A stretch of 64,000 nt of DNA from Candidatus Saccharimonadota bacterium (lineage in GTDB: Bacteria; Patescibacteriota; Saccharimonadia; Saccharimonadales; JAXHMH01): NCBI GenBank assembly GCA_034521515.1, contig JAXHMH010000002.1, positions 216,379-280,378 of the forward strand, written 5' to 3'. The position numbers and the translations under genes were made by a program. The notes under the pieces are model-generated. The model did not search any database and had not been told where the DNA came from. It saw only the letters and a program-made list of their open reading frames with translations. Positions 1-54,918 of the stretch are shown here, piece after piece. Numbering within the stretch: position 1 is the stretch's first letter; the number at the start of each line of letters is the position of its first letter.

Positions 1-205
<205 letters not shown>

Positions 206-230
206 AAAATGTTGAGCTCACTGCGATACA

Positions 231-15548: not shown

Positions 15549-15649
15549 GTCAGCCCAGTAGTAGACTTTTGAGTTAGCGCGCTTTCGATGCAAACCTATT
15601 AGATTTCAGTTTTGCTGAAATCCTTCTCAAAAGCTCACTACTGGGTCAG
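15549..15649 (-). mobile_element. ~100-nt terminal-inverted-repeat hairpin element, copy 1 (MITE-like)
   Basis: GTCAG-CCCAGTAGTAGA...GCTCACTACTGGG-TCAG. The same termini are seen at 55974-56069. Flanked by TCAG/TCAG. Confidence 0.5.
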
Positions 15650-15675
15650 ATTATCTATAAGCCGGGTTCTGTTCA

Positions 15676-15742
15676 CCCCGCACCTTTTCGTGGCGACTTA
15701 TCAATCTGGTTGCAGACTGTTTCGCCCAGAAAAGGTGCGGGG
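15676..15742 (-). repeat. 66-67-nt hairpin module inside rnpB (P18 position)
   Basis: CCCCGCACC...CAGTCTG-CAAC-CAGATTG...GGTGCGGGG. Near-identical to 15915-15980. Confidence 0.75.
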
Positions 15743-15914
15743 GAGCCAATCATCTATCTAGCTCTAGGATTGTTCCTAGAATCGAGCGGATCTTATGATG
15801 CATCTTCGGCGGGGAACCGTATGAAGACACACCTCCTTGCAGCAGACAGGGTTTACCATTTTCCATCGTCACCGACAGGAACTGTGGGCTCTTACCCCAC
15901 TCGTTTCACCTTTA

Positions 15915-15980
15915 CCCCGCACCACTTCAAGGTGCTAAACAATCTGGTTGCAAACTGTATCGCCCTGAAGTGGTGCGGGG
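15915..15980 (-). repeat. 66-nt hairpin module inside rnpB (P8/P9 position)
   Basis: CCCCGCACC...CAGTTTG-CAAC-CAGATTG...GGTGCGGGG. Paralogue of 15676-15742. Confidence 0.75.
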
Positions 15981-16165
15981 TAGTTTCGTTTCTGTGGCAC
16001 TTTCCCTAGGGTTGCCCCCGGTCGCCGTTAGCGACTGTCTTCCCCTTCGCTGCCCGGACTTTCCTCCCCCTCACCAGCTTTCAGGAGAACAAGCCTTGGC
16101 TTGCTTCTGCCTGGAAAGTGGTGAGGGGGCGATCGGCCGATAGTCTGACCTTTTTATTATATCAT

Positions 16166-16843
16166 CTACTTCTTAGATTCAGCGTCGAGAACCTCATTCA
16201 CTTCAGAATCTGCTAACTTATTTAGCTTACGAGGTACATGTGTAAAAGTAACGCTTTTAAACTGTTCAACCAGCTTTTTTATCGCTTCGTGAATTGGCCA
16301 TAAGTCCCGGTTTTTAACCTTAAAAATACCCTTCATCTGATTAACAACAAGCATGCTGTCCATATAGGCGTCAATTTCTTGAGCCCCAAGTTTTAGCGCT
16401 TCTTCAAGCCCCAGTTTAAGAGACTGATATTCCGCTTGATTGTTGGTAGTTATGCCAAGATATTCACCACTTTTCTTTATGACCGTATCGTCTAAATCAA
16501 GTAGTACATAACCGGATGCTGATGGGCCAGGATTCCCGCGAGAACCACCATCAGAATACATTTTTATGTGCTTATGCGTCTTGGGTTTACTGGAACTTTT
16601 TTTGCCCCCATCAGCCACCAAGTCAATGGCTTTGGCTAGACTTTTATCTTTATCTGTCACCTTACCTTCGGCCTCGTGGGTACTAAGCCAAATTTTCACC
16701 TTATTCCACTCATTCTCCCATCTTGGATGGTGTTGCTGTTTTTCTGCCTCTTCTGCTACCGCCTGCATAAAACTAAAAGCTTCGTTAAAATCTTTAAACT
16801 TAAACTCTTTATATAGCTGGTTGTTTGTTTCTTGCCATTTCAT
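16166..16843 (-). CDS. Fusion protein: pterin-4a-carbinolamine dehydratase (PCD/DCoH)-like domain + RNase HI domain
   Basis: N-terminus [61 protein letters not shown] (PCD signature). C-terminus [19 protein letters not shown]...NNQAEYQSL...DSMLVVNQM...NKLADS (RNase H D-E-D-D type). Confidence 0.75.
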
Positions 16844-16963
16844 CTACCTACATTCTAACAGATTACTGACTGACAGAAGCTACGTTCTGCAACAAGCAGC
16901 ATGTCCTTACGTTTAAGACGATTTAGTTACAACTGTCTGCTAAAATACAGGGGTAATCTATAT

Positions 16964-17030
16964 CGGGGTGTGGCCCCGCCTGTCTGTCTGACAAGACGGG
17001 CTGGGTAGTTGGTAGCGCGTACGGCTGGGG
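16964..17030 (+). pseudogene. tRNA-Pro 5'-half fragment interrupted by a 32-nt insertion
   Basis: CGGGGTGTGGC (16964-74) and AGTTGGTAGCGCGTACGGCTGGGG (17007-30) are identical to the 5' half of the tRNA at 17168. The segment 16975-17006 replaces GC. There is no 3' half. Confidence 0.6.
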
Positions 17031-17167
17031 TGAGCACTGCCAGTGGCAGTGTGCAAGTAAATCTTCTCTTGGAAATTTATTTCCAAAGACGAAGTTTCGG
17101 GGTCGCTGGAGGCGACCGTAAGGGTTTCACGGCCTTTTATAGTTTAAGTTATACTAGCATTTGTTGT

Positions 17168-17243
17168 CGGGGTGTGGCGCAGTTGGTAGCGCGTACGGCT
17201 GGGGGCCGTGAGGTCGCAGGTTCAAGTCCTGTCACCCCGACCA
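17168..17243 (+). tRNA. tRNA-Pro (GGG), CCA encoded
   Basis: Manual cloverleaf: acceptor CGGGGTG/CACCCCG, D GCGC/GCGC, anticodon stem TACGG/CCGTG, loop CTGGGGG, T-arm GCAGG-TTCAAGT-CCTGT. 76 nt. Confidence 0.9.
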
Positions 17244-17261
17244 CGTCAGAAATAACTACAA

Positions 17262-17311
17262 CCTCGCCTGAAATTTTGGCAATCAAGTGACCAAAATTTG
17301 GCGAGATTTTT
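17262..17311 (+). terminator. Long-stem intrinsic terminator after tRNA-Pro
   Basis: CCTCGCCTGAAATTTTGG...CCAAAATTTGGCGAG followed by ATTTTTGTTTTT. Confidence 0.6.
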
Positions 17312-17493
17312 GTTTTTCTTCCTCTTCCGATTCACGAATCCTCTCGTGAATCGGGGCGGAAACCATATCCAGGTTTTTCCTGGGCTTTTTCTATTGGTGA
17401 CTGATTTGAACCTGCGTCGCCAGGTTAGTCAGGCGCGGAAGCCCTGGCGCTCTGTCCTGTCACTCAACCATATAAACAGCCTGTAATAGAAAA

Positions 17494-17524
17494 ACGTCCA
17501 AATCTTGCTGTTTGGACGTTTTTC
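17494..17524 (+). terminator. Intrinsic terminator closing an unassigned structured region
   Basis: ACGTCCAAA-tcttgctg-TTTGGACGT + TTTTC. Confidence 0.5.
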
Positions 17525-17682
17525 TTATGAGCTGAGGCCAGTATGACAACCTGGTAGTAATCCCCAGGTGGGTACCCGCACGATGCCACCACGGTGACAC
17601 ACGAATATTGAGTTCCCTAATGATAAGTAATCAGATTATCATTTCGCTGGCGTTCTCAGCCGTAAGCTCCATTATAAATTAC

Positions 17683-18318
17683 CTACGCGCCGAGTAAAAG
17701 CCTATAAATCGTATCGATCCACGTACCCAAAAGCGGCGCGATATACGGAAAGCCCAGGAAAAAGAATATAAAAAATCCGAATAGCCCGAATGACTCAATC
17801 TGAGTCATAAATTTTTGCACTGGTTCTGGCGCAACGGCGTACAATGCTCTCGACCCATCAAGTGGTGGAAACGGAATCATATTAAATACAAAGAAACCGA
17901 TGTTTACGATAATAAATGTCAGAAGTCCCATCAATAATATCTCTGGCAGCATCGGCCCAACAGCACGAAAGATAAACGCCGCAGCTATAGCAAGCACCAG
18001 ATTCGTCAATGGTCCTGCTATAGCAACCAGTGCTGCGCCATACTCTTCAAATCGTACTCGAAACGGGTTAAATGGAACTGGCTTAGCCGCACCTAAAACC
18101 GGCGCACCCATCAACGCTAAAAGTACTGGCATGCCAATTGTTAAAAACGGATCTATATGCTTGAGCGGATTTAGGGTTAATCTACCCTGTAAATAAGCCG
18201 TGTCATCACCCAGCCAATGTGCTGTAAATGCGTGCATTGCTTCATGCAATGTCAATGAAACCAGTATTGTGCCAATAATAACGGCTATGCCAGCCGGACT
18301 GCTAATAAATTCAACCAT
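17683..18318 (-). CDS. Site-2 protease family (peptidase M50) membrane metalloprotease (start trimmed to ATG 18318)
   Basis: HEAMHAF (HExxH) and NMIPFPPLDGS (NxxPxxxLDG), multi-TM. The track's 39-aa N-terminal extension overlaps the divergent rpmB promoter region. Confidence 0.75.
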   Translation of the reverse strand: MVEFISSPAGIAVIIGTILVSLTLHEAMHAFTAHWLGDDTAYLQGRLTLNPLKHIDPFLTIGMPVLLALMGAPVLGAAKPVPFNPFRVRFEEYGAALVAIAGPLTNLVLAIAAAFIFRAVGPMLPEILLMGLLTFIIVNIGFFVFNMIPFPPLDGSRALYAVAPEPVQKFMTQIESFGLFGFFIFFFLGFPYIAPLLGTWIDTIYRLLLGA

Positions 18319-18429
18319 ACCATGACAGTATACCAACCGTTGACTTATAAGAGAAAAACAGATACAATTGCCAATCGAATATTCCGTTATTGAAACGAAC
18401 GGGCAACAAAGGAACAGAAGGATAAACCC

Positions 18430-18624
18430 ATGCAACGATGTGAATTAACCGGTAAAGGTAAGCAGTTTGGTCATAACGTTAGCTTTTCGCAACGTCATAC
18501 CAAGAAAGTCTGGAAACCAAATCTCCAAACTAAGACTGTTGAAGTTGATGGCAAAAAAGTCAAAATGAAGCTTAGTACTCAAGCTATCAGAACACTAAAG
18601 AAACAAGGTGTCATAGCAAAATAG
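18430..18624 (+). CDS. rpmB: 50S ribosomal protein L28
   Basis: 64 aa, MQRCELTGKGKQFGHNVSFSQRHTKKVWKPNLQ. Confidence 0.9.
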   Translation: MQRCELTGKGKQFGHNVSFSQRHTKKVWKPNLQTKTVEVDGKKVKMKLSTQAIRTLKKQGVIAK

Positions 18625-18629
18625 TAAAA

Positions 18630-18652
18630 GCCCTAGAAACCTAGGGCTTTTT
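18630..18652 (+). terminator. Intrinsic terminator after rpmB
   Basis: GCCCTAG-aaac-CTAGGGC + TTTTT. Confidence 0.7.
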
Positions 18653-18678
18653 AAATTATTGCTTACTGTATAGAGTAA

Positions 18679-19302
18679 CTATCGTCGATTTAATACAGCA
18701 AGCTGCACAGTATCTGTAAACTCACTGGTTTTCAGCTTTAGAGTGTCGACTGGCTCATTAGGCTCCATAGAAAGGCCTTTAATAGCTTCTTCAAGCTCAA
18801 CTTGAGGTACTGGGTAGTCTATTGCTTTATCAGCATAATGGGTAGGTATTACAAGCTTAGGGCTAATTTTTTTAATAACTTTAACAGCACCAATAGGATC
18901 AAGTGTATAGCCAGCACCCCCGACCGGCACAATAGCAACATCTACCGTACCCAGCGTTTCTAATTGATCTTCACTCAAATCAGGGTGTACATGCCCAACA
19001 ACCGCAATTCTTATATCGCCGATGATTATTTTGTATATGGTTGCATTGCGTTGACCTTCTTCGTCAATGTGCGCTCGCGCAGCAATGCCCCGAATAGAGA
19101 CACCTGATGCTTCGTATTCACCGGGGGTATCAATCTCTAACTTCGCCACTTTACTAGGTGCATGAACAGTAGTGAACAATGCAATATCATCTGATTTGGT
19201 AACGCTTTTTAAGCCCAGCTCTGCGAGATTATCATCAACGATGACCGATGATTTTTTAGTTGATAAGCGAACACAGTTTGCACCATAATATTGAATATCC
19301 AT
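18679..19302 (-). CDS. MBL-fold metal-dependent hydrolase (UPF0173-like)
   Basis: 207 aa with the overall Lactamase_B_3-like pattern (VVGHVHPD..., IPTHY). No closer assignment. Confidence 0.6.
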   Translation of the reverse strand: MDIQYYGANCVRLSTKKSSVIVDDNLAELGLKSVTKSDDIALFTTVHAPSKVAKLEIDTPGEYEASGVSIRGIAARAHIDEEGQRNATIYKIIIGDIRIAVVGHVHPDLSEDQLETLGTVDVAIVPVGGAGYTLDPIGAVKVIKKISPKLVIPTHYADKAIDYPVPQVELEEAIKGLSMEPNEPVDTLKLKTSEFTDTVQLAVLNRR

Positions 19303-19308
19303 GTTAAT

Positions 19309-19929
19309 TTACTCCTTACTTTTTTTGCTTTTAGGTTCTTTAGGTGTAAGCATGTTGTGTCTATCTAGTACAACCTGGTGCTTTGACCCTAGTAGGGTTG
19401 TTAAAAATCTATCATTTATTTGCCGACGGTATTGGAATTCACTTTTTGGCATAACGGTATAGTTCAGTTCCTTGCCTTCTTTGTTTTCAAGTTCGGCTAT
19501 AAACTTGTTGAGTTTCGTTTGATTTACATCACCAACTAATAGCAAATCCACACCACTCAACTGATCACGCGTAAATTGCCCTGTGTATATTACCAAATCA
19601 ACGTTCCCAAGTGTCTTATATGCCTGAGCCTCATCGCTTTCTTCAGGCTTGTCTTCATTGACTACACCATCATTACTGCCACCAAAAATTTTAGACAACG
19701 ACTTATGGTGCTCGAAATCTTGGTTTACCTCATAATAAAGCCGATTGTTGTTAGTATCCGAAGATATGATGCCGATGCTTAACAGATTAGAAAGCTCGCG
19801 GCGTACAGAGTTTATTTGTTCGTCGATTTTGCGAGTAATTTCCCGTACATAGAATGACCGATTTGGATTACTATAAAAAAGCTGCAACAGCTTTACCCGT
19901 GTCTTTGACCCAAACAATTGCTCAATCAT
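19309..19929 (-). CDS. Winged-helix (ArsR-like) DNA-binding protein with a C-terminal uncharacterised domain
   Basis: N-terminus KTRVKLLQLFYSNPNRSFYVREITRKIDEQINSVRRELSNL (wHTH pattern). Confidence 0.55.
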   Translation of the reverse strand: MIEQLFGSKTRVKLLQLFYSNPNRSFYVREITRKIDEQINSVRRELSNLLSIGIISSDTNNNRLYYEVNQDFEHHKSLSKIFGGSNDGVVNEDKPEESDEAQAYKTLGNVDLVIYTGQFTRDQLSGVDLLLVGDVNQTKLNKFIAELENKEGKELNYTVMPKSEFQYRRQINDRFLTTLLGSKHQVVLDRHNMLTPKEPKSKKSKE

Positions 19930-19957
19930 GTGTTCATTGTAACAGACAATGATTGGC

Positions 19958-21175
19958 TTATGCAGGTGTTTTGTTCAAAAACGTTGTGACAATATCTACA
20001 CCAGAACTGGGGTCGTGTATCCAGTGAATACTTTTGTTACGCTTGAACCATGTGTTCTGCCGCTTGGCTAGTTGGAGGGTATCTTTTACGATTCTCATCT
20101 TGGTATCCGCCAAACTTTGGTTGTCGCAAAAGTACTCACGCCACTCCTGGTACCCAATTCCCTTCAGAGCCTCGCACTCCCAGCCGTATTTTTTGGACAA
20201 CTCCCTCACCTCTGGCTCAAGCCCTGCTTCAATCATCGCATCAACGCGGGCTGTTATTCTTTTTCGGAGCATTTCATGGGGCAATTTTACGCCAAGTATC
20301 AGCGTGTTCGATCGTATGTCGTGTCTTGTTGGTTTTGCACCGCCGGTCTCTAGCAGACGTATCAAGCGACGTTTATTTTGGGTGTCGATTCCATCAGTGT
20401 CTAAGCCTTTGGATTCTATGCGTCTTAGCAATTCCTTAAGGCTAAGAGCATTGAGCTCTTGCCGAGCCTCCCTGTCGCCTTCTGGTAAAAAGCCGTAGTC
20501 AAAAAGAACGCCATCTACATATAGCCCTGTACCGCCTACCATAATTGGCAGTTTACCCCTGGATCCTATGTCTTCAATAGCCTCGAGTGCTAAATCTTTA
20601 AACACTGCTGCAGTAAAGTCATCGCACGGATTCACAATATCTAGTAAGTGATGTTTGACTTGTGACTGCTCTTCTTGGCTTGGCTTGGCGGTACCAATGT
20701 TCACTTCTCGCCTCACAGTCCAGGAATCTGCTGCGATGATTTCGCCACCAAACTTCTTGGCGAGTTCAATAGCCAGCGCCGACTTACCGCTGGCAGTAGG
20801 CCCGACAATTACAACAAGTGGTAATTTGGAGGTTGGAGGTTGGAGGATGGAGGATGGATTTTTGCTATCTTGTTGCTTAGGTCTCCATAAAAGCCTTTCT
20901 ACATCCACCCGGTAATTTTCATCAACTGCAATACCCTCAGCTTCAAGCACCTGCTTATGCCCAGATTTGCCACCCGGATAACCATTGGCCAGACCGCCAC
21001 TCTTGTTGACCACCCGCTGCCATGGCAAATCCGGATTGCCAAAGTGCGCAATACCGCCGACAATCCTAGCTGCCCGGGCATTCCCAGCCAGTGCCGCAAT
21101 CTGCCCGTATGTCATCACCCGCCCTTTAGGAATCTCCGCAACAAGCGCCTCCACCCGCTCCTTGAAGTCAGACAC
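19958..21175 (-). CDS. miaA: Fusion ORF: alkyltransferase-like (ATL, Cys-less MGMT DNA-binding) domain + tRNA dimethylallyltransferase MiaA
   Basis: N-terminus IPKGRVMTYGQIAALAGNARAARIVGGIAHFGNPDLPWQRVV (PCHR replaced by PWQR). C-terminus VIVGPTASGKSALAIELAKKFGGEIIAADS... (MiaA P-loop). Likely GTG start at 21175 overlapping the upstream TGA; the track start is 21211. Confidence 0.8.
   Translation of the reverse strand: MSDFKERVEALVAEIPKGRVMTYGQIAALAGNARAARIVGGIAHFGNPDLPWQRVVNKSGGLANGYPGGKSGHKQVLEAEGIAVDENYRVDVERLLWRPKQQDSKNPSSILQPPTSKLPLVVIVGPTASGKSALAIELAKKFGGEIIAADSWTVRREVNIGTAKPSQEEQSQVKHHLLDIVNPCDDFTAAVFKDLALEAIEDIGSRGKLPIMVGGTGLYVDGVLFDYGFLPEGDREARQELNALSLKELLRRIESKGLDTDGIDTQNKRRLIRLLETGGAKPTRHDIRSNTLILGVKLPHEMLRKRITARVDAMIEAGLEPEVRELSKKYGWECEALKGIGYQEWREYFCDNQSLADTKMRIVKDTLQLAKRQNTWFKRNKSIHWIHDPSSGVDIVTTFLNKTPA
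20828..20862. repeat. Heptad array forming the ATL-MiaA linker
   Basis: GGAGGTT GGAGGTT GGAGGAT GGAGGAT GGATTTT. Encodes ...KNPSSILQPPTSKLP... on the minus strand and contains no stop triplet in the reading frame. Confidence 0.8.
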
Positions 21176-21770
21176 CGAAATACTCCGCCACTTCCTTCCA
21201 ATCGGCAACACGCTCTACGCCAGGATGAAGTTCTTTACCCCTGCTCCAACCCCAGTCACCAAATAACAAGGCTTTCACACCGACTTCTGCTGCCAAGTTA
21301 CAGTGCTCAGGGCTATCGTCTATAAGGTAGCCGGCACCTATCTCCTTGCAAATATGAGCTTTTGTAACCTTTCGGTCGGAATCGCTCCATAAACTTACAA
21401 AGTGAACATCGGCAAAGATGTCTGCAGCGTACTTCCCAAGCATCTGATTGGTAATATCCACGAACTCAGCAGTACGTGAAGTAACAATCTCAAGTTGATA
21501 TCGACTTTTTAGCTTCTCGAGTATGGCTACATCTTCTCGTAGGATCGACTGGTTCGCCTTATGGCTACTGGTCAAAAATTCCTTAAACAGAGTGTACGGA
21601 TCTTCGCCCGTGTCCCCCCACAGCCTTTCATAGTATCCCCAATAATCACCGGGCTTTTTGAAGTCGTCGTAGGTAAGGTTTAAGCCAATCCTCTCCTTTG
21701 AGAAAGCAATAATAGCGTCCACCTCCGAACATAAAACTTCGTCAGCATCTACTGCGATGATTTCTCTCAT
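21168..21770 (-). CDS. HAD-superfamily hydrolase, 5'(3')-deoxyribonucleotidase-like
   Basis: N-terminal AVDADEVL (DxDxV/T motif). 200 aa with an NT5C-like layout. Confidence 0.55.
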   Translation of the reverse strand: MREIIAVDADEVLCSEVDAIIAFSKERIGLNLTYDDFKKPGDYWGYYERLWGDTGEDPYTLFKEFLTSSHKANQSILREDVAILEKLKSRYQLEIVTSRTAEFVDITNQMLGKYAADIFADVHFVSLWSDSDRKVTKAHICKEIGAGYLIDDSPEHCNLAAEVGVKALLFGDWGWSRGKELHPGVERVADWKEVAEYFGV

Positions 21771-23629
21771 AACGATGTCTTAGTGACGCGGGATTTGGCT
21801 TCGTTAGCTACGGTCTTGAGGAACTCGTTGCTACCGTGTGAACCATGATTCTCGTGAACTGCAAGGTCTTTACGTATTCGAGGAGTTACTTCGTCAGACT
21901 CAATCTCTTTCTCGCCAACCACAATGGTATACGGCACTTTCCACATTTCAGCGTCTCTTATTTTTTTGCCAACTGATTCGTTGCTGTTATCTACCGTTAG
22001 TCGCAGGCCGAGTTCACGCGCCTCATCCGCCAGCTTAGCGGCATACGCCACAGTCGCATCTTCTTGATTAACTGTAATAACCCGAACTTGTTCTGGGGAA
22101 AGCCAAACCGGGAACTTACCGGCAAAGTGTTCTATAAGCAGCATAATAAACCGTTCGAATGATCCCAGGATAGCCCTATGAATCAGCACGGGCGGCTTCT
22201 CGCTGCCATCGGCATCTGCGTAAGTTAGCTCAAAGCGTTTTGGCATCGCAAAGTCTAGCTGTACGGTGGCCAACTGCGTTTCACGCCCCAAAGCGTCGGT
22301 AAACATAAAATCTAGTTTTGGCCCGTAAATAGCCGCTTCACCTTCCATTCGTTTAGCCTTTAAGCCAAGTTTTTCAGAAACTGCCTCTAGCATGTCCTCC
22401 GCCTTATCCCAATCAGCAGGCTCACCGATGTATTTTTCTGGAGCGATGCCGTCACGAACTGACAGTGAAACCCAATGTTTACCCCACAATCCAAGCCGTT
22501 CATAAAACTCTTGAATAATGTTTGCCAGCGTAGTCGCCTCTTCTTCAATTTGATCTACAGTACAGAACGTATGACCGTCGTCTACCGTAAAACCGCGTGT
22601 ACGCTGCAAACCACCGAGCTGGCCGGGCTTTTCGTCCCGATATTGCATGGTCTGTTCTATGTAGCGGATTGGTAAATCACGGTAACTTCGTGGTCGTGCA
22701 GCATAAATCTGCGTATGATGCGGACAATTAACCGGCTTGAGTACAAATTCTTGCTGATAATGACTCTCTACCCTAAACAGCTCTTCCTCAAACTTCTCGG
22801 CATGTCCAGATAATTTATATAGGTCTAGCTTAGCAAGGTGCGGTATAGACACCTGCTGCATATCATACTGGCGGCTAATGTCTTTAAGCGCACTCTTGAG
22901 CTCCTCAATTAACACCGTGCCGCGCGGTGAATAAAGTGGCAAACCCGGCCCGACAAGCTCAGAAAAGGAAAACAAGTCGAGTTCTTGGCCAAGCTTACGA
23001 TGATCGCGCTTTTTAGCCTCTTCTAACATGTTGAGGTGCTGACGGAGCTCCTTTTCGGTTGCAAACGCCACGCCGTACAGCCTCTGCATTTGCGGGTTAC
23101 CTTCTTTACCGCGCCAATAAGCACCGGCTACGCGCATGAGTTTAAATGCCCCTACCTTGCCGGTTGATTCGACATGCGGGCCACGGCAAAGATCGGTAAA
23201 GTCACCGTTACGGTAGAATCCCACCTCGTCTACTTTGCTATCACTATCTGTAATAGTACCGAGTTCTTCGACTTCTAGGTCTTTCGCTACGGTCGTTCCA
23301 GACCTCTTAAGATCGTTGAGCAGTTCTTCTTTATACGGTTGCTTGGCCTCTTTTGCCCATGCAACAGCCTCATCAATAGGTTTTGTGAACTGTTCAAATA
23401 CCTGGTTATCCTTAATAGTTGCGCGCATTTCGGCTTCGATGCGCTCAAAATCATCCTCTGAGATAGTGATGTCACCAAGGTCAATATCGTAATAAAAGCC
23501 ATGTTCTACCACTGGGCCAACACCAAATTTAGCCTCTGGCCAAAGTTTTTGAACAGCACTGGCCATAATATGTGCTAAAGAATGCCGCATGGCATGTAAT
23601 TTATCCTGGTCGCCTGTATTCTCGCTCAT
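21767..23629 (-). CDS. thrS: Threonine--tRNA ligase lacking the N-terminal TGS domain (start trimmed to ATG 23629)
   Basis: MRHSLAHIMASAV (editing domain) at residue ~13, class II core, C-terminal anticodon-binding domain. The track's 35-aa extension runs through a terminator hairpin. Confidence 0.9.
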   Translation of the reverse strand: MSENTGDQDKLHAMRHSLAHIMASAVQKLWPEAKFGVGPVVEHGFYYDIDLGDITISEDDFERIEAEMRATIKDNQVFEQFTKPIDEAVAWAKEAKQPYKEELLNDLKRSGTTVAKDLEVEELGTITDSDSKVDEVGFYRNGDFTDLCRGPHVESTGKVGAFKLMRVAGAYWRGKEGNPQMQRLYGVAFATEKELRQHLNMLEEAKKRDHRKLGQELDLFSFSELVGPGLPLYSPRGTVLIEELKSALKDISRQYDMQQVSIPHLAKLDLYKLSGHAEKFEEELFRVESHYQQEFVLKPVNCPHHTQIYAARPRSYRDLPIRYIEQTMQYRDEKPGQLGGLQRTRGFTVDDGHTFCTVDQIEEEATTLANIIQEFYERLGLWGKHWVSLSVRDGIAPEKYIGEPADWDKAEDMLEAVSEKLGLKAKRMEGEAAIYGPKLDFMFTDALGRETQLATVQLDFAMPKRFELTYADADGSEKPPVLIHRAILGSFERFIMLLIEHFAGKFPVWLSPEQVRVITVNQEDATVAYAAKLADEARELGLRLTVDNSNESVGKKIRDAEMWKVPYTIVVGEKEIESDEVTPRIRKDLAVHENHGSHGSNEFLKTVANEAKSRVTKTSL

Positions 23630-23662
23630 TGTATGTATAATACCACCACTGATTAACAGAGG

Positions 23663-23705
23663 AAAATAAAAAAGGGTCGAATAGCCTCGCAACTCTATTC
23701 GACCC
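23663..23705 (-). terminator. Intrinsic terminator-like hairpin inside the thrS 5' leader
   Basis: Minus strand GGGTCGAATAG-agttgcgagg-CTATTCGACCC + TTTTTTATTTT, ending 34 nt before the thrS ATG. Confidence 0.55.
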
Positions 23706-23945
23706 TGCCCACTCCTACTAAAAGGATGTTTCAAAACACCTACTTAAAACTTCGCCTGCTGGCATCGGTCATTTAAATACCGTGAGATAAGCATACCATA
23801 CTAGCATTATGATACTAGTACTTTTATATTGTTATTATTACACCTACCCTGTGGATTTACTTTTTATCTGTTTTTCTGTATGATTTACCCTGTTATACAG
23901 GGAATAGATCTATAAGTTACCCCCTCCCTATAACGACGGTAGCTC

Positions 23946-23966
23946 GGACGATTAGCTCATTTGGCT
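23946..23966 (+). pseudogene. tRNA-Val 5' fragment (20/21 nt identity)
   Basis: GGACGATTAGCTCATTTGGCT versus GGGCGATTAGCTCATTTGGCT at 24072. Pairs with 24007-24024 (AGCCAAATAGCAGCTAAT) as a long hairpin. Confidence 0.5.
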
Positions 23967-24071
23967 CACAGCAAAGCTGTAAAGAAGAAATGCCGCCAGA
24001 CGTCTTAGCCAAATAGCAGCTAATTTATTTTCAAAGACGGGTTGAGCGTACATTTAAGGTATTGTTTTGGT

Positions 24072-24148
24072 GAGGGCGATTAGCTCATTTGGCTAGAGCG
24101 CCACATTGACGTTGTGGAGGTGATAGGTTCGAATCCTATATCGCCCAC
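24072..24148 (+). tRNA. tRNA-Val (GAC), CCA encoded
   Basis: Manual cloverleaf: acceptor GGGCGAT/ATCGCCC, D GCTC/GAGC, anticodon stem CCACA/TGTGG, loop TTGACGT, T-arm ATAGG-TTCGAAT-CCTAT. 77 nt. Confidence 0.92.
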
Positions 24149-24179
24149 CAGATTAAAATCCGGTCTTTGCGACCGGTTT
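24131..24179 (+). repeat. 49-bp perfect direct repeat, copy 1 (tRNA-Val 3' 18 nt + its terminator)
   Basis: ATCCTATATCGCCCACCAGATTAAAATCCGGTCTTTGCGACCGGTTTTT, identical to 24308-24356. Confidence 0.95.
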
Positions 24180-24307
24180 TTGATTTGGTAAGTGCTATCT
24201 AGCTGAGAACCGTTCGGCGTAGCCGAGGTTCGGTGGAGTGCAGCGAAGAATAGAAAGCACCGAAGGTATTTTCTATTCGAACAAACGGAAAAGGACGTTT
24301 GTCCGCT

Positions 24308-24356
24308 ATCCTATATCGCCCACCAGATTAAAATCCGGTCTTTGCGACCGGTTTTT
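24308..24356 (+). repeat. 49-bp perfect direct repeat, copy 2 (att-like)
   Basis: Identical to 24131-24179. Lies 42 nt beyond the tgt stop and can serve as a terminator in both directions. Confidence 0.95.
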
Positions 24357-24398
24357 TGTTATGTGTAGTGCTCGTATAGTAAATCGATCAATTAATTA

Positions 24399-25670
24399 TT
24401 ATCCTAGGTAGGTTTCTGTAATCCGGTTTAAGTACCGAATATTATGGATAGACACCAGGCTGCCGGCCAAACTTTCCTTAACCTTAAACTGGTGGCGTAA
24501 GAACCCACGACTATAACCATAAGCGCACGTCGCACAATCACAACCCTCCTCAATCGGCCTATTATCATCAATAAATTGCGCGTTAGTTAAATGCATCTTC
24601 TCATCCCTCGCCCCAAAAACCTTGCCACAACGACTGCATGCGAGTACAGCGCTAGGAGAAACCGAAGCACAGACTGAGCCGTACTTAGGGTACGGTGAAG
24701 GAGTACTGGGGGTTTCGACACCGCGATGTACCGCAACCGGCTTCGGCGCAGGCGGCTCCGCCGTCTGGCAGGAAGCCGGGGTGCAGCCGTTGTGGACCCA
24801 GGCAGTGCCATGACGAGCATTCCGTGTAGCCAATACGCAGTCAACCATGTCAATCCCACACTCAATAGCAAACCTAAAATCTGTCGGATCACCAACCCCC
24901 ATCAGATAGTGAGGTCGTGATTTGTCATACAGTGGCGCCAAAAATTCTAGCATCTCGTGCATATCCTTGCGCGACTCGCCAACCGATAAGCCGCCAATTG
25001 CGATGCCGTCTACAGGCAGTGACTGTACAAACTCCAGGCTTTTTTGGCGCAATTGCTTATCTAGCCCTCCTTGTGCTATTCCAAACAACAGAGGTCGCTC
25101 ACCGGGTTTTAAGTCTTTTGTTTGCCTCTGGAACTCTGCAAGCGATCGCTCCAGCCAGCGATGAGTCCTATCAAAAGCCTCTTTAGTACGTAGCCTAGCC
25201 GTATCATCCAGCCCAGTCACATCATCAAAAGCCATGATAATATCTGCCCCTAGCTCAAGTTGTATCTGAATCGCCTTCTCTGGAGACAGGAAAACATTAT
25301 CACCGGACTTAGGATCCTTAAACGATACGCCATCTTCGGTAGTCTTGGTAATATGAGCCAGTGAAAACACCTGAAACCCACCAGAATCAGTCAAAATCGG
25401 ACCGTCCCACCGCGTAAACTCATGCAACCCACCAAGCTTCTTAACAGTTTTTTCGCCTGGTTGCAGGTGTAGATGATACGCATTGCCCAAAATGATTTGA
25501 GCCCCTGTTTCACGAACTTGCTGTGGCGATAAACCTTTTACAGCACCACGGGTTCCGACCGGCATAAAAACAGGGGTATATATATCACCAGCGCGTGTTT
25601 TCAGAGTGCCACGACGTGCATAAGTGCCGAGCATTGAGCTCGTAAAAAAACCGTCTTTGGAATTATTCAT
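24399..25670 (-). CDS. tgt: tRNA-guanine transglycosylase carrying a ~60-aa insertion (start trimmed to ATG 25670)
   Basis: ARRGTLKTRAGDIYTPVFMPVGT, LTDSGGFQV, GIAQGG, LMGVG, zinc site CDCATC...H. The track extension overlaps a divergent promoter. Confidence 0.85.
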   Translation of the reverse strand: MNNSKDGFFTSSMLGTYARRGTLKTRAGDIYTPVFMPVGTRGAVKGLSPQQVRETGAQIILGNAYHLHLQPGEKTVKKLGGLHEFTRWDGPILTDSGGFQVFSLAHITKTTEDGVSFKDPKSGDNVFLSPEKAIQIQLELGADIIMAFDDVTGLDDTARLRTKEAFDRTHRWLERSLAEFQRQTKDLKPGERPLLFGIAQGGLDKQLRQKSLEFVQSLPVDGIAIGGLSVGESRKDMHEMLEFLAPLYDKSRPHYLMGVGDPTDFRFAIECGIDMVDCVLATRNARHGTAWVHNGCTPASCQTAEPPAPKPVAVHRGVETPSTPSPYPKYGSVCASVSPSAVLACSRCGKVFGARDEKMHLTNAQFIDDNRPIEEGCDCATCAYGYSRGFLRHQFKVKESLAGSLVSIHNIRYLNRITETYLG

Positions 25671-25716
25671 CCCTGTTATTGTAGCACCTCGGTAACCGGC
25701 ACACTTAGCTAGATGC

Positions 25717-25745
25717 TTGACAAGTTGTGAATTGTGCCATATATT
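25717..25745 (+). promoter_or_regulatory. Near-consensus sigma70-type promoter divergent from tgt
   Basis: TTGACA (25717-22), 17-nt spacer, TATATT (25740-45). Confidence 0.5.
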
Positions 25746-25751
25746 ACCGTT

Positions 25752-25941
25752 CGTTAAACGGGAGGCACTCATACTTTGAGTACCAATTCGAGTTCGCTCG
25801 AGGGGTTTAAGTTGTTCTACGAAGAACTGACCTCAGCGAAATCAACAAGTCGTATACGACGCGTCCGACCTGCTCTTGCTAACAAGTAAGCTGCGTAGGA
25901 CGTCAAAGCCCCTGGCACATGAGAGAGTCAGGGGCTTTTTT
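25752..25941 (+). ncRNA. Candidate ~190-nt structured small RNA (unassigned family)
   Basis: Follows the 25717 promoter. Hairpins CCGTT-cgtta-AACGG, TCGAG-UUCG-CTCGA, GTTCT-acga-AGAAC, GTCG-tata-CGAC. Terminator GCCCCTG-loop-CAGGGGC + TTTTTT (25908-25941). Confidence 0.4.
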
Positions 25942-26043: not shown

Positions 26044-26124
26044 TCTCAATTACCAATTTTCATCTATAAACTATTTAAAAATTTCCATCTTTCAGGTCTT
26101 TAAAAGGGTAAATGGAAATTAATT

Positions 26125-26173
26125 GGTAAATGGTAAATGACCGATGTTAAGTGCCAAATGCCCAATGTTAAAT
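26125..26173. repeat. Heptad array upstream of nrdR
   Basis: GGTAAAT GGTAAAT GACCGAT GTTAAGT GCCAAAT GCCCAAT GTTAAAT. Confidence 0.75.
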
Positions 26174-26190: not shown

Positions 26191-26613
26191 ATGATTTGCA
26201 TCTATTGCTTAGGAGAAACTAGAGTTGTTAACTCGCGACATCAAAAACGGCCTAACACAGTCTGGCGTCGACGCCACTGCCAGCAATGCGGTACGGTTTT
26301 TACCTCAATTGAAGAGGCCGACCTGTCTGCCAGTATCGTTGTACGCAAACCAGAAGCTAAAACAAACGATTTAGAGCCGTTCTCACGAGATAAACTAATG
26401 CTGAGTATCTATGACAGCCTAAAGCACCGCAAAACCGCCCTGAAGGATGCTCAGAGCCTTACGCGCACTATTATTAACCAGATACACAACCATACTCATG
26501 AGGCTTGTGTTGATACTTACGTGATTGTCGAGGTTAGTCTTAAGGTTTTACAAAGGTTTGATAAGATAGCCGCCACGCATTATGCTGCCTTCCACCCAGA
26601 GAAGAGGGTGTAG
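26191..26613 (+). CDS. nrdR: Transcriptional repressor NrdR
   Basis: N-terminal zinc ribbon CIYCLGETRVVNSR...CQQCG followed by an ATP-cone-like region. 140 aa. Confidence 0.82.
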   Translation: MICIYCLGETRVVNSRHQKRPNTVWRRRHCQQCGTVFTSIEEADLSASIVVRKPEAKTNDLEPFSRDKLMLSIYDSLKHRKTALKDAQSLTRTIINQIHNHTHEACVDTYVIVEVSLKVLQRFDKIAATHYAAFHPEKRV

Positions 26614-26719
26614 GGTGAAGGGTGCAGGGTATAGGGTGTAGGGGCTAGATTTAGGAGCTTACTTATCACTAACACCTAGCCTATCTGTACTAGGTACTTT
26701 GTACTCCGCACTCACCTAG
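26601..26719. repeat. 17-unit heptad-phased array spanning the whole nrdR/GT2 convergent spacer
   Basis: GAAGAGG GTGTAGG GTGAAGG GTGCAGG GTATAGG GTGTAGG GGCTAGA TTTAGGA GCTTACT TATCACT AACACCT AGCCTAT CTGTACT AGGTACT TTGTACT CCGCACT CACCTAG. Confidence 0.85.
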
Positions 26720-28694: not shown

Positions 28695-28778
28695 TAAGTG
28701 TAAAGCTAAACTTGAAAAGTTAAAAGTTATCTTAGAAGTAATTGAGTGGCGAGTGCTTAGCGACTAGTGCCTAGTGCG
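28695..28778. repeat. Heptad array (12 units)
   Basis: TAAGTGT AAAGCTA AACTTGA AAAGTTA AAAGTTA TCTTAGA AGTAATT GAGTGGC GAGTGCT TAGCGAC TAGTGCC TAGTGCG. Confidence 0.75.
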
Positions 28779-28784
28779 CCGGCT

Positions 28785-28862
28785 GGTTTACCATGAGCCT
28801 GTCGAATCGGTTTACCATGGCGTGCGTAGCGAGTCGAATGGTTCACCATGAGCTTGTCGAAT
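28785..28862 (-). repeat. Three tandem 23-31-nt repeats in the tRNA-Gly 3' trailer, each recreating the ACCA+TTCGAC junction
   Basis: Minus sense: ...GCACCA TTCGACAAGCTCATGGTGAACCA TTCGACTCGCTACGCACGCCATGGTAAACCG ATTCGACAGGCTCATGGTAAACCA. Confidence 0.7.
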
Positions 28863-28935
28863 GGTGCGAGATACGGGAATCGAACCCGTGTCTCCTGCTT
28901 GGGAAGCAGATATACTACCATTATACTAATCTCGC
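28862..28935 (-). tRNA. tRNA-Gly (CCC), CCA encoded
   Basis: Manual cloverleaf: acceptor GCGAGAT/ATCTCGC, anticodon stem TCTGC/GCAGG, loop TTCCCAA, T-arm ACGGG-TTCGATT-CCCGT. 74 nt. Confidence 0.88.
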
Positions 28936-31578: not shown

Positions 31579-31620
31579 AAGGATATTGTACTAGGTTTTT
31601 AGCTAGAGGTGGTAAAAGTA

Positions 31621-31662
31621 GTGGTTAGTGATTAGTGGATAGTGGTTAGTGAAGAGTGTGCT
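31621..31662. repeat. Heptad array (6 units)
   Basis: GTGGTTA GTGATTA GTGGATA GTGGTTA GTGAAGA GTGTGCT. The plus strand is C-free across ~55 nt. Confidence 0.8.
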
Positions 31663-31718: not shown

Positions 31719-31793
31719 TGGTGTCCCCACCTGGAATCGAACCAGGATCTAATCCTTAGGAGGGATTTGTTCTATCCATTAAACTACAGGGAC
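31719..31793 (-). tRNA. tRNA-Arg (CCT), CCA encoded
   Basis: Manual cloverleaf: acceptor GTCCCTG/TGGGGAC (two G-U pairs), anticodon stem AATCC/GGATT, loop CTCCTAA, T-arm CCTGG-TTCGATT-CCAGG. 75 nt. Confidence 0.85.
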
Positions 31794-36682: not shown

Positions 36683-37537
36683 TTATATGAGTAAGATATT
36701 AGTGCTGTACCACTGAACCAACAGATCACCCCACAAAAACATAATGATACCTGCGATGATAAGAAATGGACCAAACGGTATTTTGTTGGCAACTTGCAAT
36801 CGCTTGGTAAGCAGGAACGGCAAAACTGTGATCGTCCCAATTATAGACGATAGAAAGATTACTCCAGCAGCTTTTAGTGCGCTGCCAGCGAGTAAGCCAA
36901 GTAAAAAACCAAGCTTTACATCCCCGCCACCAATCCATCTGCCATCCGATACCTGAAACAGAATCCAGAAAAACCCGCCACCAACAATTGTAGCTAAAAC
37001 TAGTGAAAAAATGTCAGAAAGATTACCTTGAAATAATACCCACACAATACTAACGACCACCCAAAATATTCCTAGCGGGTAAACCAGCTTGTTGGGTAGT
37101 AACATCCACTTAATGTCGTAAACAGTCAGAGCAACCAAGCCCGTCAACAACACCAACCAGCTAACAAATAGCACCCAGCCGGCTAGCTCAAAACCATACG
37201 GCCATGCAAGGTACGACATAACGAAAAGCAACCCAGTCGTCAGCTCTACAGCCGGATATTGCCAATTTATTGATTTATGACAATAGCGGCACCTTCCCTT
37301 CAAGGTAAGCCAGCTAACAAGTGGGATTAAATCCTTTGGGTTAAGCGCATGTTTACAATGTGGGCACATCGATCGGCCAAATAAGCCATAATCGCCTTGC
37401 CAAAGACTATTTTTACTTTTTATTTTTTTTGATTTGCGAGTTTTTGCGTGTTTAATGCTTTGGTGTATTCGAAACACTAGAGCATTTACAAAACTACCCA
37501 GCGCTAGGCCGTAAATAAACAGTATTACATAAATCAT
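36683..37537 (-). CDS. pilD: Prepilin peptidase / N-methyltransferase (peptidase A24)
   Basis: CPHC...CRYC zinc motif in the N-terminal region, polytopic, GGGDVKL-type aspartyl motif. Confidence 0.88.
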   Translation of the reverse strand: MIYVILFIYGLALGSFVNALVFRIHQSIKHAKTRKSKKIKSKNSLWQGDYGLFGRSMCPHCKHALNPKDLIPLVSWLTLKGRCRYCHKSINWQYPAVELTTGLLFVMSYLAWPYGFELAGWVLFVSWLVLLTGLVALTVYDIKWMLLPNKLVYPLGIFWVVVSIVWVLFQGNLSDIFSLVLATIVGGGFFWILFQVSDGRWIGGGDVKLGFLLGLLAGSALKAAGVIFLSSIIGTITVLPFLLTKRLQVANKIPFGPFLIIAGIIMFLWGDLLVQWYSTNILLI

Positions 37538-39414: not shown

Positions 39415-39435
39415 ACAGAATCTCCGGTTTTACGA

Positions 39436-39463
39436 GTTGAAAGTTGAAAGTTGAAAGTTGAAA
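39436..39463. repeat. Perfect (GTTGAAA)x4 tandem heptamer between pilT and pilC
   Basis: gttgaaagttgaaagttgaaagttgaaa. On the mRNA strand this is (UUUCAAC)x4, 22 nt upstream of the pilC AUG. Partly complementary to the purine-rich words at 39480-39512. Confidence 0.95.
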
Positions 39464-39516
39464 GTACTCTGTTTTTTGCTTTATTAATCTTATAAACTTT
39501 TAACATTATACTTCCA

Positions 39517-49155: not shown

Positions 49156-50238
49156 ATGAGTCTTAATATCGCTATCGTGGGGCTGCCGAATGTTGGCAAG
49201 AGCACCCTGTTTAATGCGCTGACGGATAGCAGTATTTTGGCTGCTAACTATCCGTTTGCCACTATTGAACCGAACACTGGTATTGTGCCTGTGCCAGATG
49301 AGCGTCTGCAAAAACTGGCAGACATGTACAAGACTCAGAAGATACTGCCTGCGACGGTTACTTTTGTCGATATAGCCGGGCTAGTCGCAGGCGCCAGCAA
49401 AGGCGAGGGTTTAGGTAACCAATTCTTGAGCCATATCCGCAGCTGCAACGCCATCTGTCAAGTGGTTAGGGCGTTTGATGATTTAAACGTTTTGCGCAAC
49501 GAGTCCAGTAAGGATCCGCTGCACGATATAGAAGTGGTTAACACAGAGCTGATATTGGCAGACTTGCAAACCATAGAAAAACGCCTACCCCAAACTGAAA
49601 AAGCGGCTCGAGCGAATCCAAAACTTAAACCCGAATTTGAAGCATTAAAAACTGCACACGATATACTCGACTCCGGTCAGCCACTTTTTCACAGTACTGA
49701 GTACTCAGTACTAAGTACGGAGCTCAAGGATCTGCAGCTCATGACAGCCAAGCCAATTATTTATTTGTTTAATATGGATGAGGACCAGCTTAATAATGAG
49801 ACCAAAAAACAAGAACTAAGTAAATTAGTGTCCCCTGCTCAAGCAATTTTTGTCAGCGCCAAGCTAGAAGATGAACTGCGCGGTCTTGATAGATCTGACC
49901 GGCAAGAAATGTTGGAAAGTTACGGCCAGACTGAGCCAGGATTACACAAAGTTATACACGCTGCCTACGATGTACTGGGATTGCAGAGTTACCTGACGGC
50001 GGGCGAAAAAGAGGTTCGTGCCTGGACTATCAAAAAAGGTTCGACAGCTCCCCAAGCAGCCGGCGTGATTCATGGTGATTTTGAACGTGGCTTCATCGCG
50101 GCACAAATTATTGATTATGATGACCTTGTGGCTGCCGGTTCAGAAGCTGCAGCTAAACAACAAGGGAAAATCCGCACTGAAGGCAAAACCTACGTTATGC
50201 AACCCGGGGATGTCGTTGAGTTCAAGTTTAACGTGTAA
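49156..50238 (+). CDS. ychF: Ribosome-binding ATPase YchF
   Basis: IVGLPNVGKSTLFNALT, DIAGLV, C-terminal TGS-like domain (GDVVEFKFNV). Confidence 0.93.
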   Translation: MSLNIAIVGLPNVGKSTLFNALTDSSILAANYPFATIEPNTGIVPVPDERLQKLADMYKTQKILPATVTFVDIAGLVAGASKGEGLGNQFLSHIRSCNAICQVVRAFDDLNVLRNESSKDPLHDIEVVNTELILADLQTIEKRLPQTEKAARANPKLKPEFEALKTAHDILDSGQPLFHSTEYSVLSTELKDLQLMTAKPIIYLFNMDEDQLNNETKKQELSKLVSPAQAIFVSAKLEDELRGLDRSDRQEMLESYGQTEPGLHKVIHAAYDVLGLQSYLTAGEKEVRAWTIKKGSTAPQAAGVIHGDFERGFIAAQIIDYDDLVAAGSEAAAKQQGKIRTEGKTYVMQPGDVVEFKFNV

Positions 50239-54336: not shown

Positions 54337-54346
54337 AGTAGTAACT

Positions 54347-54367
54347 AGATTCTAGATCTAAGATTCT
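54347..54367. repeat. Heptad array (3 units)
   Basis: GATTCTA GATCTAA GATTCTA, directly upstream of the efp start. Confidence 0.65.
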
Positions 54368-54562
54368 AGCGACCCCTTTCTTTATTAGCTTTCCTTAATC
54401 CTGATAGCACTTTAGCGCATTCCACCGAAAGATCTGCTACTTCTTTAAAGTCTTCTTGGGTAATGTAGTGGAGATCCTTAACAATGAGCAGTTGGTTTTG
54501 GAGCTCTAGCAAAGACCCGTATGCCATGCTTTTAGGTCTGTAAAAGACGTAATCGTACTCAT
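54367..54562 (-). pseudogene. Decayed relic of a four-helix-bundle (23S rRNA intervening-sequence protein family) gene
   Basis: Frame A: MSTITSFTDLKAWHTGLC* (family N-terminus F.DL.AW). Frame C: ...LELQNQLLIVKDLHYITQEDFKEVADLSVECAKVLSGLRKANKERGR* (family C-terminus). The middle ~70 aa are missing and the two pieces are out of frame. Confidence 0.4.
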
Positions 54563-54904: not shown

Positions 54905-54918
54905 TTGTTCTAGCTGTG

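Follow-up and report, generated by a model that had tools for sequence, protein, structure and literature searches.

A single minus-strand open reading frame (ORF) at 19958-21175 (405 amino acids plus stop), hereafter atl-miaA, was analysed in a 64,000-nucleotide stretch of DNA, here called the window (contig JAXHMH010000002.1, positions 216,379 to 280,378, assembly GCA_034521515.1), from a Candidatus Saccharimonadota bacterium. Its product consists, in this order, of an alkyltransferase-like (ATL) domain, a predicted disordered tether and a complete MiaA, the tRNA dimethylallyltransferase that prenylates A37 of tRNAs, and the joint between the two domains is a heptanucleotide array like those occupying the spacers of this genome. 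The most economical reading of the data, and probably the right one, is that the fusion arose by a lineage-specific in-frame joining of two neighbouring genes and yields a polypeptide with two functions, each domain working as it does in the unfused state; we infer that both are active in this way and that the tether is a mere flexible link between them. The domains are known, their combination is undescribed in the literature searched, and it is present in the databases under the name MiaA.

Read mechanically, the ORF extends without interruption over 417 codons (19958-21211, minus strand), as the initial annotation had described it. The ORF itself stands, whereas its beginning must be moved: GTG 21211 was set aside in favour of GTG 21175-21173, the likely start, which is preceded by a well-spaced Shine-Dalgarno sequence (GGAG at 21186-21183 with a 7-nt spacer, the putative ribosome-binding site and start together occupying 21173-21186) and coincides with the start of the NCBI product P0001, a protein of 405 amino acids named “MiaA”, 100% identical and annotated in a Candidatus Saccharibacteria metagenome-assembled genome. 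The start so placed overlaps by 8 nt the stop (21170-21168) of the NT5C-like gene lying upstream.

Indel errors occur readily in short tandem repeats and the two genes are separate in every arbitrarily sampled relative, so that the real genome might contain two genes and the length of the array might have been misassembled, a case that the initial annotation had itself raised in the form of an indel restoring a stop codon. An independent Logan assembly encodes the same protein and is 100% identical over 5218 nt, and on account of this identity a sequencing indel is unlikely to lie behind the fusion and an error of sequencing or assembly was rejected. Furthermore, a change of one unit would leave a constrained miaA without a start codon, which is implausible, and the existence of 27 other fused clusters, some of them represented by as many as 7 contigs of different samples, indicates that the architecture is viable. 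An artefact is therefore extremely unlikely.

The N-terminal part of the protein (residues 1-101, 20873-21175, minus strand) is an ATL domain having the fold seen in MGMT's C-terminal domain. PF01035 matches residues 15-94 of the 417-residue mechanical ORF (E 5.8e-19, 68.2 bits against a cut-off of 27), the best PDB matches of residues 1-107 are vpAtl (2kif, E 7.5e-14) and S. pombe Atl1 (3gva, E 2.1e-11), both aligning end to end, and the predicted local distance difference test (pLDDT) of the structural model ranges from 86 to 97. The active-site motif PCHR is replaced by PWQR at residues 51-54 (CCA TGG CAG CGG, 21014-21025, minus strand), with Trp in place of the reactive Cys, and LPW[Q/H]RVV is present in 27 of the 27 fused homologues aligned. 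To judge from this replacement, alkyl transfer should not be possible; the score with TIGR00589 (ogt), 36.7 bits, is below the cut-off of 46.4, which likewise places the domain outside the catalytic MGMT/Ogt group. The N-terminal domain of AGT is absent, the ATL domain starting at residue 1-3 and ending near residue 100, and the residues involved in flipping the lesion are retained, since Y23 (the tyrosine of TYG) and R37 (the arginine finger of AR-x-VG) align with Y25 and R39 of Atl1 and are kept in the alignment of the homologues. Homology to the AGT C-terminal domain, loss of the reactive Cys, lack of the N-terminal domain and retention of the lesion-flipping residues together assign the domain to the ATL family.

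The stand-alone ATLs (Atl1, vpAtl and E. coli YbaZ) resemble this domain over ~100 residues and also have Trp for Cys, but they are free proteins, whereas the ATL of the window is covalently joined to MiaA. Other differences concern the residue following the Trp, which is Gln here and His or Phe in the stand-alone proteins, the loop GGLANGYPGG after the motif, which is closer to the GNYSGG of catalytic human AGT than to the loops of Atl1 and vpAtl, and Arg69 of Atl1, which has no counterpart. Fusions of the MGMT/AGT fold are known in other settings: Ada consists of N-Ada and AGT, and AGT-endonuclease V fusions also exist. In these proteins, as in that of the window, an MGMT-fold module is linked to a second nucleic-acid enzyme; there, however, a catalytic AGT is combined with a partner in DNA repair or regulation, whereas here a Cys-less module is combined with a tRNA-modification enzyme. 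ATLs are lesion-binding proteins that hand O6-alkylguanine over to excision repair (PMC10814553), and the ATL part of the fusion would do as the ATLs studied so far, namely bind O6-alkylguanine in DNA and pass the lesion to nucleotide excision repair. The 120 best matches of the ATL domain are all free proteins of 101-119 amino acids, 77-86% identical to it. The ATL part is thus more conserved than the MiaA part, whose closest MiaA relatives are 63-70% identical, and on these sequence comparisons the constraint on a small, non-catalytic ATL protein is unexpectedly strong.

The MiaA module (residues 118-405, 19961-20824, minus strand) is complete by domain matches, invariant residues and predicted structure. 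PF01715 (IPPT) matches residues 168-391 of the mechanical ORF (E 9.9e-58) and the equivalog model TIGR00174 is matched over positions 2-284 of 288 with 230.1 bits against a cut-off of 148.65; the P-loop GPTASGKS (residues 125-132, 20780-20803, minus strand), identified by sequence and alignment, and the motifs ADSWTV and GGTGLY are present, as are 40 invariant columns over 32 homologues. The domain assignments of the initial annotation, an ATL carrying PWQR for PCHR and a complete tRNA dimethylallyltransferase, to be confirmed with PF01035 and PF01715, are thereby corroborated. The module belongs to the same equivalog as MiaA of the E. coli type, from which it differs in lacking a start codon of its own and in being preceded by an ATL and a tether.

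The two domains are separated by some 18 residues rich in Pro, Ser and Thr (residues 100-117, KQQDSKNPSSILQPPTSK, 20825-20878, minus strand), predicted to be disordered. An AlphaFold2 model based on 32 homologues consists of two confident domains (mean pLDDT 90.7) with pLDDT <50 at residues 102-116 and a predicted template-modelling score (pTM) of 0.70; the model would thus correspond to a flexible tether and gives no sign of a fixed mutual orientation of the domains or of an interface between them.

A large part of the tether is encoded by the heptanucleotide array. Tandem Repeats Finder (TRF) places it at 20826-20858 (minus strand; period 7, 4.7 copies, 96% matches, score 52), the coding strand reading ATCCTCC twice and AACCTCC twice with partial units, while the plus strand at 20828-20862 consists of GGAGGTT twice, GGAGGAT twice and GGATTTT, in letter-for-letter agreement with the initial annotation. 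Within the window the 12-mer GGAGGWTGGAGG is confined to this array (3 overlapping matches against 0.25 expected), the array translates on the coding strand as ...KNPSSILQPPTSKLPLVVIVGPTASGKS and the linker stretch that it encodes reads ..NPSSILQPPTSK... The array is G-free on the mRNA strand and unpaired in the predicted fold of the mRNA, and neither repeat comparison nor the predicted RNA fold revealed a partner arm with which it could form a hairpin. In its period of 7, its number of units within the range 3-6 and its lack of C on the plus strand it resembles the spacer arrays of this genome, from which it departs by lying inside an ORF and by the absence of stops from all six frames; none of the other large period-7 arrays of the window shows this, so that the contrast drawn earlier between an array without an in-frame stop and all the others proved correct.

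The initial annotation had also stated that no start codon is available just upstream of the P-loop of MiaA, and this too holds. Reading of the coding strand revealed no in-frame ATG, GTG or TTG between GTG at residue 90 (window position 20908) and G125 of the P-loop, residues 91-124 being without a canonical start, and the only near-cognate codons in this interval are ATC (residue 110) and ATT (residue 123). Having no start of its own, MiaA depends on the start of atl and, with neither an atl stop nor a miaA start, can be produced in the window only as a continuation of ATL. Two proteins might nevertheless be made, either by internal initiation at GTG 90 or at ATC/ATT or by proteolysis of the tether, in which case the fusion would have no functional consequence; the predicted disorder of the tether, which would render it accessible to proteases, the in-frame GTG and the unstructured nature of the array region in the predicted mRNA would all be compatible with such a situation. 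On the other hand, GTG 90 has no Shine-Dalgarno sequence, the mRNA around the joint contains CCUCC, which is the anti-Shine-Dalgarno sequence itself and not its complement, and ribosomes starting at atl must read through, as there is no stop. That two separate proteins continue to be made is therefore improbable.

The arrangement of the two genes in other Saccharibacteria was surveyed in 46 loci of GTDB species representatives, in the 4 nearest unfused relatives and in 74 metagenome loci, an independent sample fetched with the ATL domain as query; 3 fused loci were fetched on purpose and do not belong to the arbitrary samples. In the GTDB loci the separate or fused state was judged from tblastn frames and ORF logic. 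Two separate ORFs were found in 46/46 GTDB loci having atl directly upstream of miaA and in 74/74 metagenome loci; overall, atl and miaA are separate in 124 of the 127 other loci with this adjacency, the remaining 3 being the fused relatives fetched on purpose. The survey of related genomes for separate genes, suggested with the initial annotation, thus found them, and several have heptad arrays at their junction. The adjacency itself is common, with atl directly preceding miaA in ~120 of the ~140 Saccharibacteria loci sampled, and the layout is stereotyped: typically miaA is in the -1 frame and starts ~10-20 nt upstream of the atl stop. The offset of the miaA frame with respect to atl is 2 in 42 loci, 1 in 5 and 0 in 6 of the first 53 loci (the 3 fused ones included), and 2 in 50, 1 in 19 and 0 in 5 of the 74 metagenome loci. 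An overlap in the -1 frame implies, as far as gene arrangement can tell, co-expression of the two genes and probably their translational coupling.

A search with the full-length protein yielded 27 further fused clusters having both Pfam domains, 50-66% identical and all from Saccharibacteria sources, which are annotated simply as MiaA in public data; the same search yielded many MiaA-only proteins, 63-70% identical over the MiaA part, and among the top 150 representatives at 50% identity 4 are full-length fusions. Several fused proteins were seen on 4-7 independent contigs from different samples, their loci being translated without a break. The opinion expressed in the initial annotation, that an ATL-MiaA combination had not been described, is therefore valid for the literature, insofar as neither an ATL-MiaA fusion nor heptad repeats in Saccharibacteria were found in the library searched, and not for the databases. 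In the alignment of the fused homologues conservation is good in both domains, while the linker, which runs from the LLWxP closing the ATL to the strand of the P-loop, is hypervariable, measures from ~8 to ~68 residues and has no common sequence, the linkers of the fused proteins not being homologous to one another.

Fused and separate proteins are intermingled when the MiaA part is placed in a neighbour-joining tree, and Fitch parsimony counts 15 changes of state (12-17 over 30 bootstrap trees), some fused clades, such as P0019/P0022/P0025, having been kept through substantial divergence. The protein of the window clusters with the unfused P0063, P0030, P0023, P0026 and P0039, each of which has its own atl (109-134 aa) immediately upstream, and these loci share the synteny thrS, (NT5C-like), atl, miaA, 206-aa gene, Lactamase_B_3, L28. 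It is concluded from these comparisons that adjacent separate genes represent the ancestral condition, that in-frame fusion is a rare, recurrent and derived one, and that the fusion of the window is an event of its own. The first reading, that of an ancient conserved fusion, was rejected, the ORFs being separate in all 46 GTDB loci with adjacent genes. In a modified form it would hold that fusion occurred once, in the common ancestor of a large Saccharibacteria clade, and was followed by many fissions, the window preserving the old state. Indeed, parsimony counts changes without giving them a direction, and the stop-bearing arrays and ATG-creating units found at the L115 and L143 junctions, described below, could be scars of fission; yet the deepest branches and most taxa have separate genes with the stereotyped -1-frame overlap, the linkers of the fused proteins differ wholly in length and sequence, and the window is nested among unfused relatives, all of which makes such a history very unlikely.

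Heptad arrays, with units that differ from one locus to another, are present at the atl-miaA junction of nine relatives (L085, L087, L088, L001, L026, L083, L115, L119 and L143). In L085 an ATG is followed by CCATCTA three times and CCACCTA, coding for MPSTIYHLPPTPAP; in L088 CCCCACT/CCTCACT is repeated twice directly after the miaA ATG; L026 has 3.6 copies of CCCATTT and L119 4.6 copies of AACTACA, while in L083, which encodes a fused protein, GACAGAC occurs three times in the linker. In four loci there are two arrays per junction: a purine-rich one at the end of atl, containing stops as well as variant units that are Shine-Dalgarno-like or create an ATG, and after it a C-rich, stop-free one that constitutes the first codons of miaA. 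The four loci are L087 (2969-3056, AGGTGAT-type followed by CCTAAAA/CCTCGAA), L115 (2792-2864, GTAGAAG-type followed by CCAAATT/CCACCTT), L143 (2022-2088, TAGGAGC followed by AACTCCC twice and AACCCCC twice) and L001 (5293-5364, AGGGTGT-type followed by its reverse complement). The junction, 0.73% of the sequence in the 53 loci, contains 7 of their 26 arrays with a period of 7, 14 or 21 (binomial P 6e-10) and 1 of the 122 having another period, the comparison being with all sequence and not with non-coding sequence only, so that part of the enrichment reflects tolerance in a non-conserved region; the metagenome sample repeats the enrichment (5/9 against 1/55 arrays of other periods).

The arms of the paired arrays are predicted to pair in register in the RNA, the stop of atl and the start of miaA lying between them, with fold energies of -53.8 kcal/mol in L001 (z -7.7), -32.5 in L087 (z -1.6) and -26.7 in L115 (z -1.6), while L143 is predicted to fold weakly; in the first three loci the structure may be a hairpin for translational coupling or for processing by an RNase. 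Comparable elements are the heptad repeats of H. influenzae hmw1/hmw2 (PMC12721329), where 7-nt tandem units are likewise located at the 5' end of a gene and a long RNA hairpin results from pairing of the pyrimidine-rich repeat with a G-rich arm downstream, as the purine-rich array of L001, L087 and L115 would pair in register with the C-rich one.

Which of the two arrays corresponds to that of the window bears on the way in which the fusion arose. The C-rich array of L143 codes for ..QPPTPK and that of the window for ..QPPTSK, both being made of 2+2 units, and the window array resembles the right-hand, C-rich array of the relatives and not the stop-bearing spacer array. Because of this match, the elements lost would have been either the stop of atl together with the start of miaA or else the frame offset, rather than stops inside the array itself. 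The proposal that a spacer array had lost its stops is accordingly to be retained in one part, the origin of the fusion from separate neighbours at a heptad-bearing junction, and given up in the other, the loss of stops within this array; the stop-bearing arrays between separate genes that it had predicted do exist in L087, L115, L143 and L001. The idea of a young array, formed de novo and unrelated to those of the relatives, is weakened, since L085, L088, L115 and L143 have C-rich arrays like it in this position.

The ancestor would have had adjacent atl and miaA genes that shared a few bases, miaA being read in the -1 frame. Starting from this condition, a net insertion of 1 (mod 3) nt would join the frames and one or four heptads would suffice, while from a state in which both genes are in the same frame the loss of one stop would be enough. 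The latter state is represented by L115 (2765-2905) and L001 (5280-5400), in which a single TAG (plus one codon in L001) separates atl from miaA; as read from their sequences, these two genomes would be one substitution away from an in-frame fusion like that of the window.

The array of the window could also be regarded as a switch, slippage by one unit toggling between ATL-MiaA and ATL alone and thereby altering translational fidelity or stress responses within the population. Its unit is not a multiple of three and the array is located inside an ORF; in silico removal or addition of one unit gives an ATL of normal size (119 or 132 amino acids) and no MiaA, the product with one unit less stopping at the position homologous to the separate atl stop of L086, whereas a change by three units keeps the fusion. 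Moreover, in relatives heptad arrays are located directly after the miaA ATG, a classical phase-variable position, heptanucleotide tracts drive hmw phase variation in H. influenzae (PMC12721329), and the level of MiaA tunes stress responses in E. coli (PMC9303304). The hmw tract, however, is a hypervariable run of at least 11 identical units in the 5' untranslated region, 11 repeats being the natural minimum (PMC12721329), while the window array, with only 2+2 identical units, is far below this, lies inside the ORF, has no partner arm and displays no variation. Indeed, no length variant is seen, two assemblies being identical and the 90% cluster having a single member, and none was found in metagenomes by a scan that allowed 14-44 nt between the flanks, a collection containing no close relative. 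The fact that the units differ between species fits slow turnover better than rapid switching. A non-multiple-of-3 unit placed as a switch is thus present and a length polymorphism or a long identical tract is absent; judging by sequence, the tract is formally a switch, but phase variation is quite unlikely.

A further alternative is that ATL works together with MiaA on nucleic acid, the fusion fixing a pre-existing complex. ATL might then be a tRNA-binding or base-flipping module, a reader of exocyclic-6-alkylated purines such as N6-isopentenyladenosine (i6A), or a damage-sensing link to prenylation. Such a pairing would account for the position of atl directly upstream of miaA in ~120 of ~140 loci, for at least 12 changes of state together with the persistence of some fused clades (P0019/P0022/P0025), for the strong constraint on ATL (77-86% identity, above that of MiaA) and for the fact that none of the 120 top MiaA matches is fused to another neighbour; it would also suit the tRNA-centred neighbourhood (tgt, thrS, RNase P RNA). 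Published structures of Atl1 reportedly show that its pocket accepts N6-alkyl-2,6-diaminopurine, which would speak in the same sense. In E. coli, miaA adjoins the repair gene mutL and miaA mutants are mutators, a phenotype cited in PMC12249760; by analogy, this offers a precedent for a loose association of repair with miaA and not for a mechanism. The gene context differs as well, being a mutL-miaA-hfq superoperon in E. coli (PMC12249760) as against an operon of thrS, NT5C-like gene and atl-miaA in the window. These arguments lose part of their force when it is considered that synteny is generally high in small genomes, that overlapping genes can fuse via a single indel, so that recurrent neutral fusion is to be expected, that the AlphaFold2 model contains no fixed interface (pTM 0.70, disordered tether), that fusions are rare (0/120 arbitrarily sampled adjacent loci) and that no paper in the library searched links ATL to MiaA or to tRNA. 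A functional pairing of this type is unlikely. It is unlikely, too, that ATL serves MiaA as a dedicated partner, instead of or in addition to sensing lesions, with slippage of the arrays repeatedly fusing, separating or switching the pair; as such a partner, ATL could bind tRNA or recognise exocyclic-6-alkylated purines, for example i6A.

In-frame joining of two neighbours whose products continue to act as before is the reading preferred here, and several points weigh against it. Six of the 8 fused junctions are without a heptad array, so that arrays are not required for fusion; the idea that heptad arrays cause fusions in general was rejected on this ground, and arrays would be one route to fusion and not the sole one. 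The counts of changes of state rest on neighbour-joining trees only. No fusion occurs among the 120 arbitrarily sampled adjacent loci (46 GTDB, 74 metagenome), and because fused forms are absent from these two samples, they are rare and could be mildly deleterious. The searched collections contain no relative closer than ~70% in MiaA (up to 86% in ATL), and the nearest relatives are too distant (about 65-70% identical in MiaA) for the mutation behind the fusion to be reconstructed. The support comes from sequence and prediction, and some internal initiation at GTG residue 90 or at the near-cognate ATC/ATT could still take place. Finally, the source is a single metagenome-assembled genome and the second assembly may stem from the same reads.

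ATL proteins are otherwise known only as sensors of DNA lesions feeding nucleotide excision repair, and a near-universal atl-miaA pair with at least 12 changes between the fused and the separate state constitutes a hint, of the Rosetta-stone type, of a link between ATL and tRNA isopentenylation. The junction also illustrates that in very compact genomes the limits of genes can be remodelled by short heptanucleotide arrays, these supplying stops, Shine-Dalgarno-like sequences, starts and N-terminal extensions in different relatives and a linker in the window. If the fusion is merely tolerated, it represents an ordinary fusion, though one whose origin is unusually clear.

The operon containing the fused gene has the order thrS, NT5C-like, atl-miaA, 206-aa gene, Lactamase_B_3. 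The upstream NT5C/HAD-like gene (200 aa, 21168-21770, minus strand) has a faint match to PF06941 and no Pfam match at E<=1e-5, and is found at the same place in L085 and L087. Downstream of miaA, 19309-19929 (minus strand) encodes a 206-aa protein having a winged-helix-like N-terminus and no confident Pfam match; both this gene and the NT5C-like one are syntenic in relatives. The surrounding region, 15642-25772, is rich in tRNA-related functions and includes, besides a tRNA-Pro and a tRNA-Val gene, the RNase P RNA (15642-16148), thrS (21767-23734) and tgt (24399-25772), the last three on the minus strand.

Arrays of period 7 are strikingly overabundant in the window. This period is found in 12 of its 29 non-redundant TRF arrays, to which two arrays of period 14 and one of period 21 are to be added, as compared with 22/175 in other Saccharibacteria loci and 16/330 in Clostridia loci. 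Besides the array of the fusion (20826-20858), those of period 7 are located at 45-110, 26103-26139, 26605-26643, 28715-28777, 31619-31658, 37408-37453, 39435-39465, 49692-49722, 52785-52808, 54345-54369 and 54834-54906. The unit is different in each, most arrays are found in spacers just upstream of gene starts, and most are C-free on the plus strand and hence, as the genes run mainly on the minus strand, lack G on the sense strand. Cyanobacterial short tandemly repeated repetitive (STRR) sequences are families of heptanucleotide tandem repeats in intergenic spacers; like the 12-15 arrays of the window they are short, genome-wide tandem heptamers with a unit for each locus, though they belong to another phylum, and we know of no report linking them to gene fusion.

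Individual arrays of the window have features of their own. G-quadruplex motifs fit some arrays (26605 and that of L026) and not others: at 26605-26643, AGGGTGT is repeated 5.6 times, giving a G3-N4 repeat, that is, a canonical motif of the G-quadruplex type on the plus strand; this array contains the TAG stop of ORF 26191-26613, and its unit is also the left arm of the junction hairpin of L001. The arrays at 28715-28777 and 31619-31658 lie just 3' of tRNA-Gly (28862-28935) and tRNA-Arg (31719-31793), on the minus strand, each between the tRNA and the next protein gene. At 54834-54906 inverted arrays of TATAAAG-type and ACTTTTT-type face each other downstream of a gene end, as do ATAGGTT and AACCTAT in L088 (5300-5389), and from their sequences these inverted pairs look like terminator hairpins. 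Lastly, the 5' end of the 16S rRNA gene is located at 1-207 (minus strand) and here Rfam positions 1-101 are stretched over 207 nt, the extra ~100 nt including two inverted heptad arrays at 45-71 and 78-110 (AAAGTTA-type and ACTTTAT-type) predicted to fold as a weak A/U-rich hairpin (-14.4 kcal/mol, z -1.15); this appears to be an insertion of heptad arrays in the V1 region of the rRNA.

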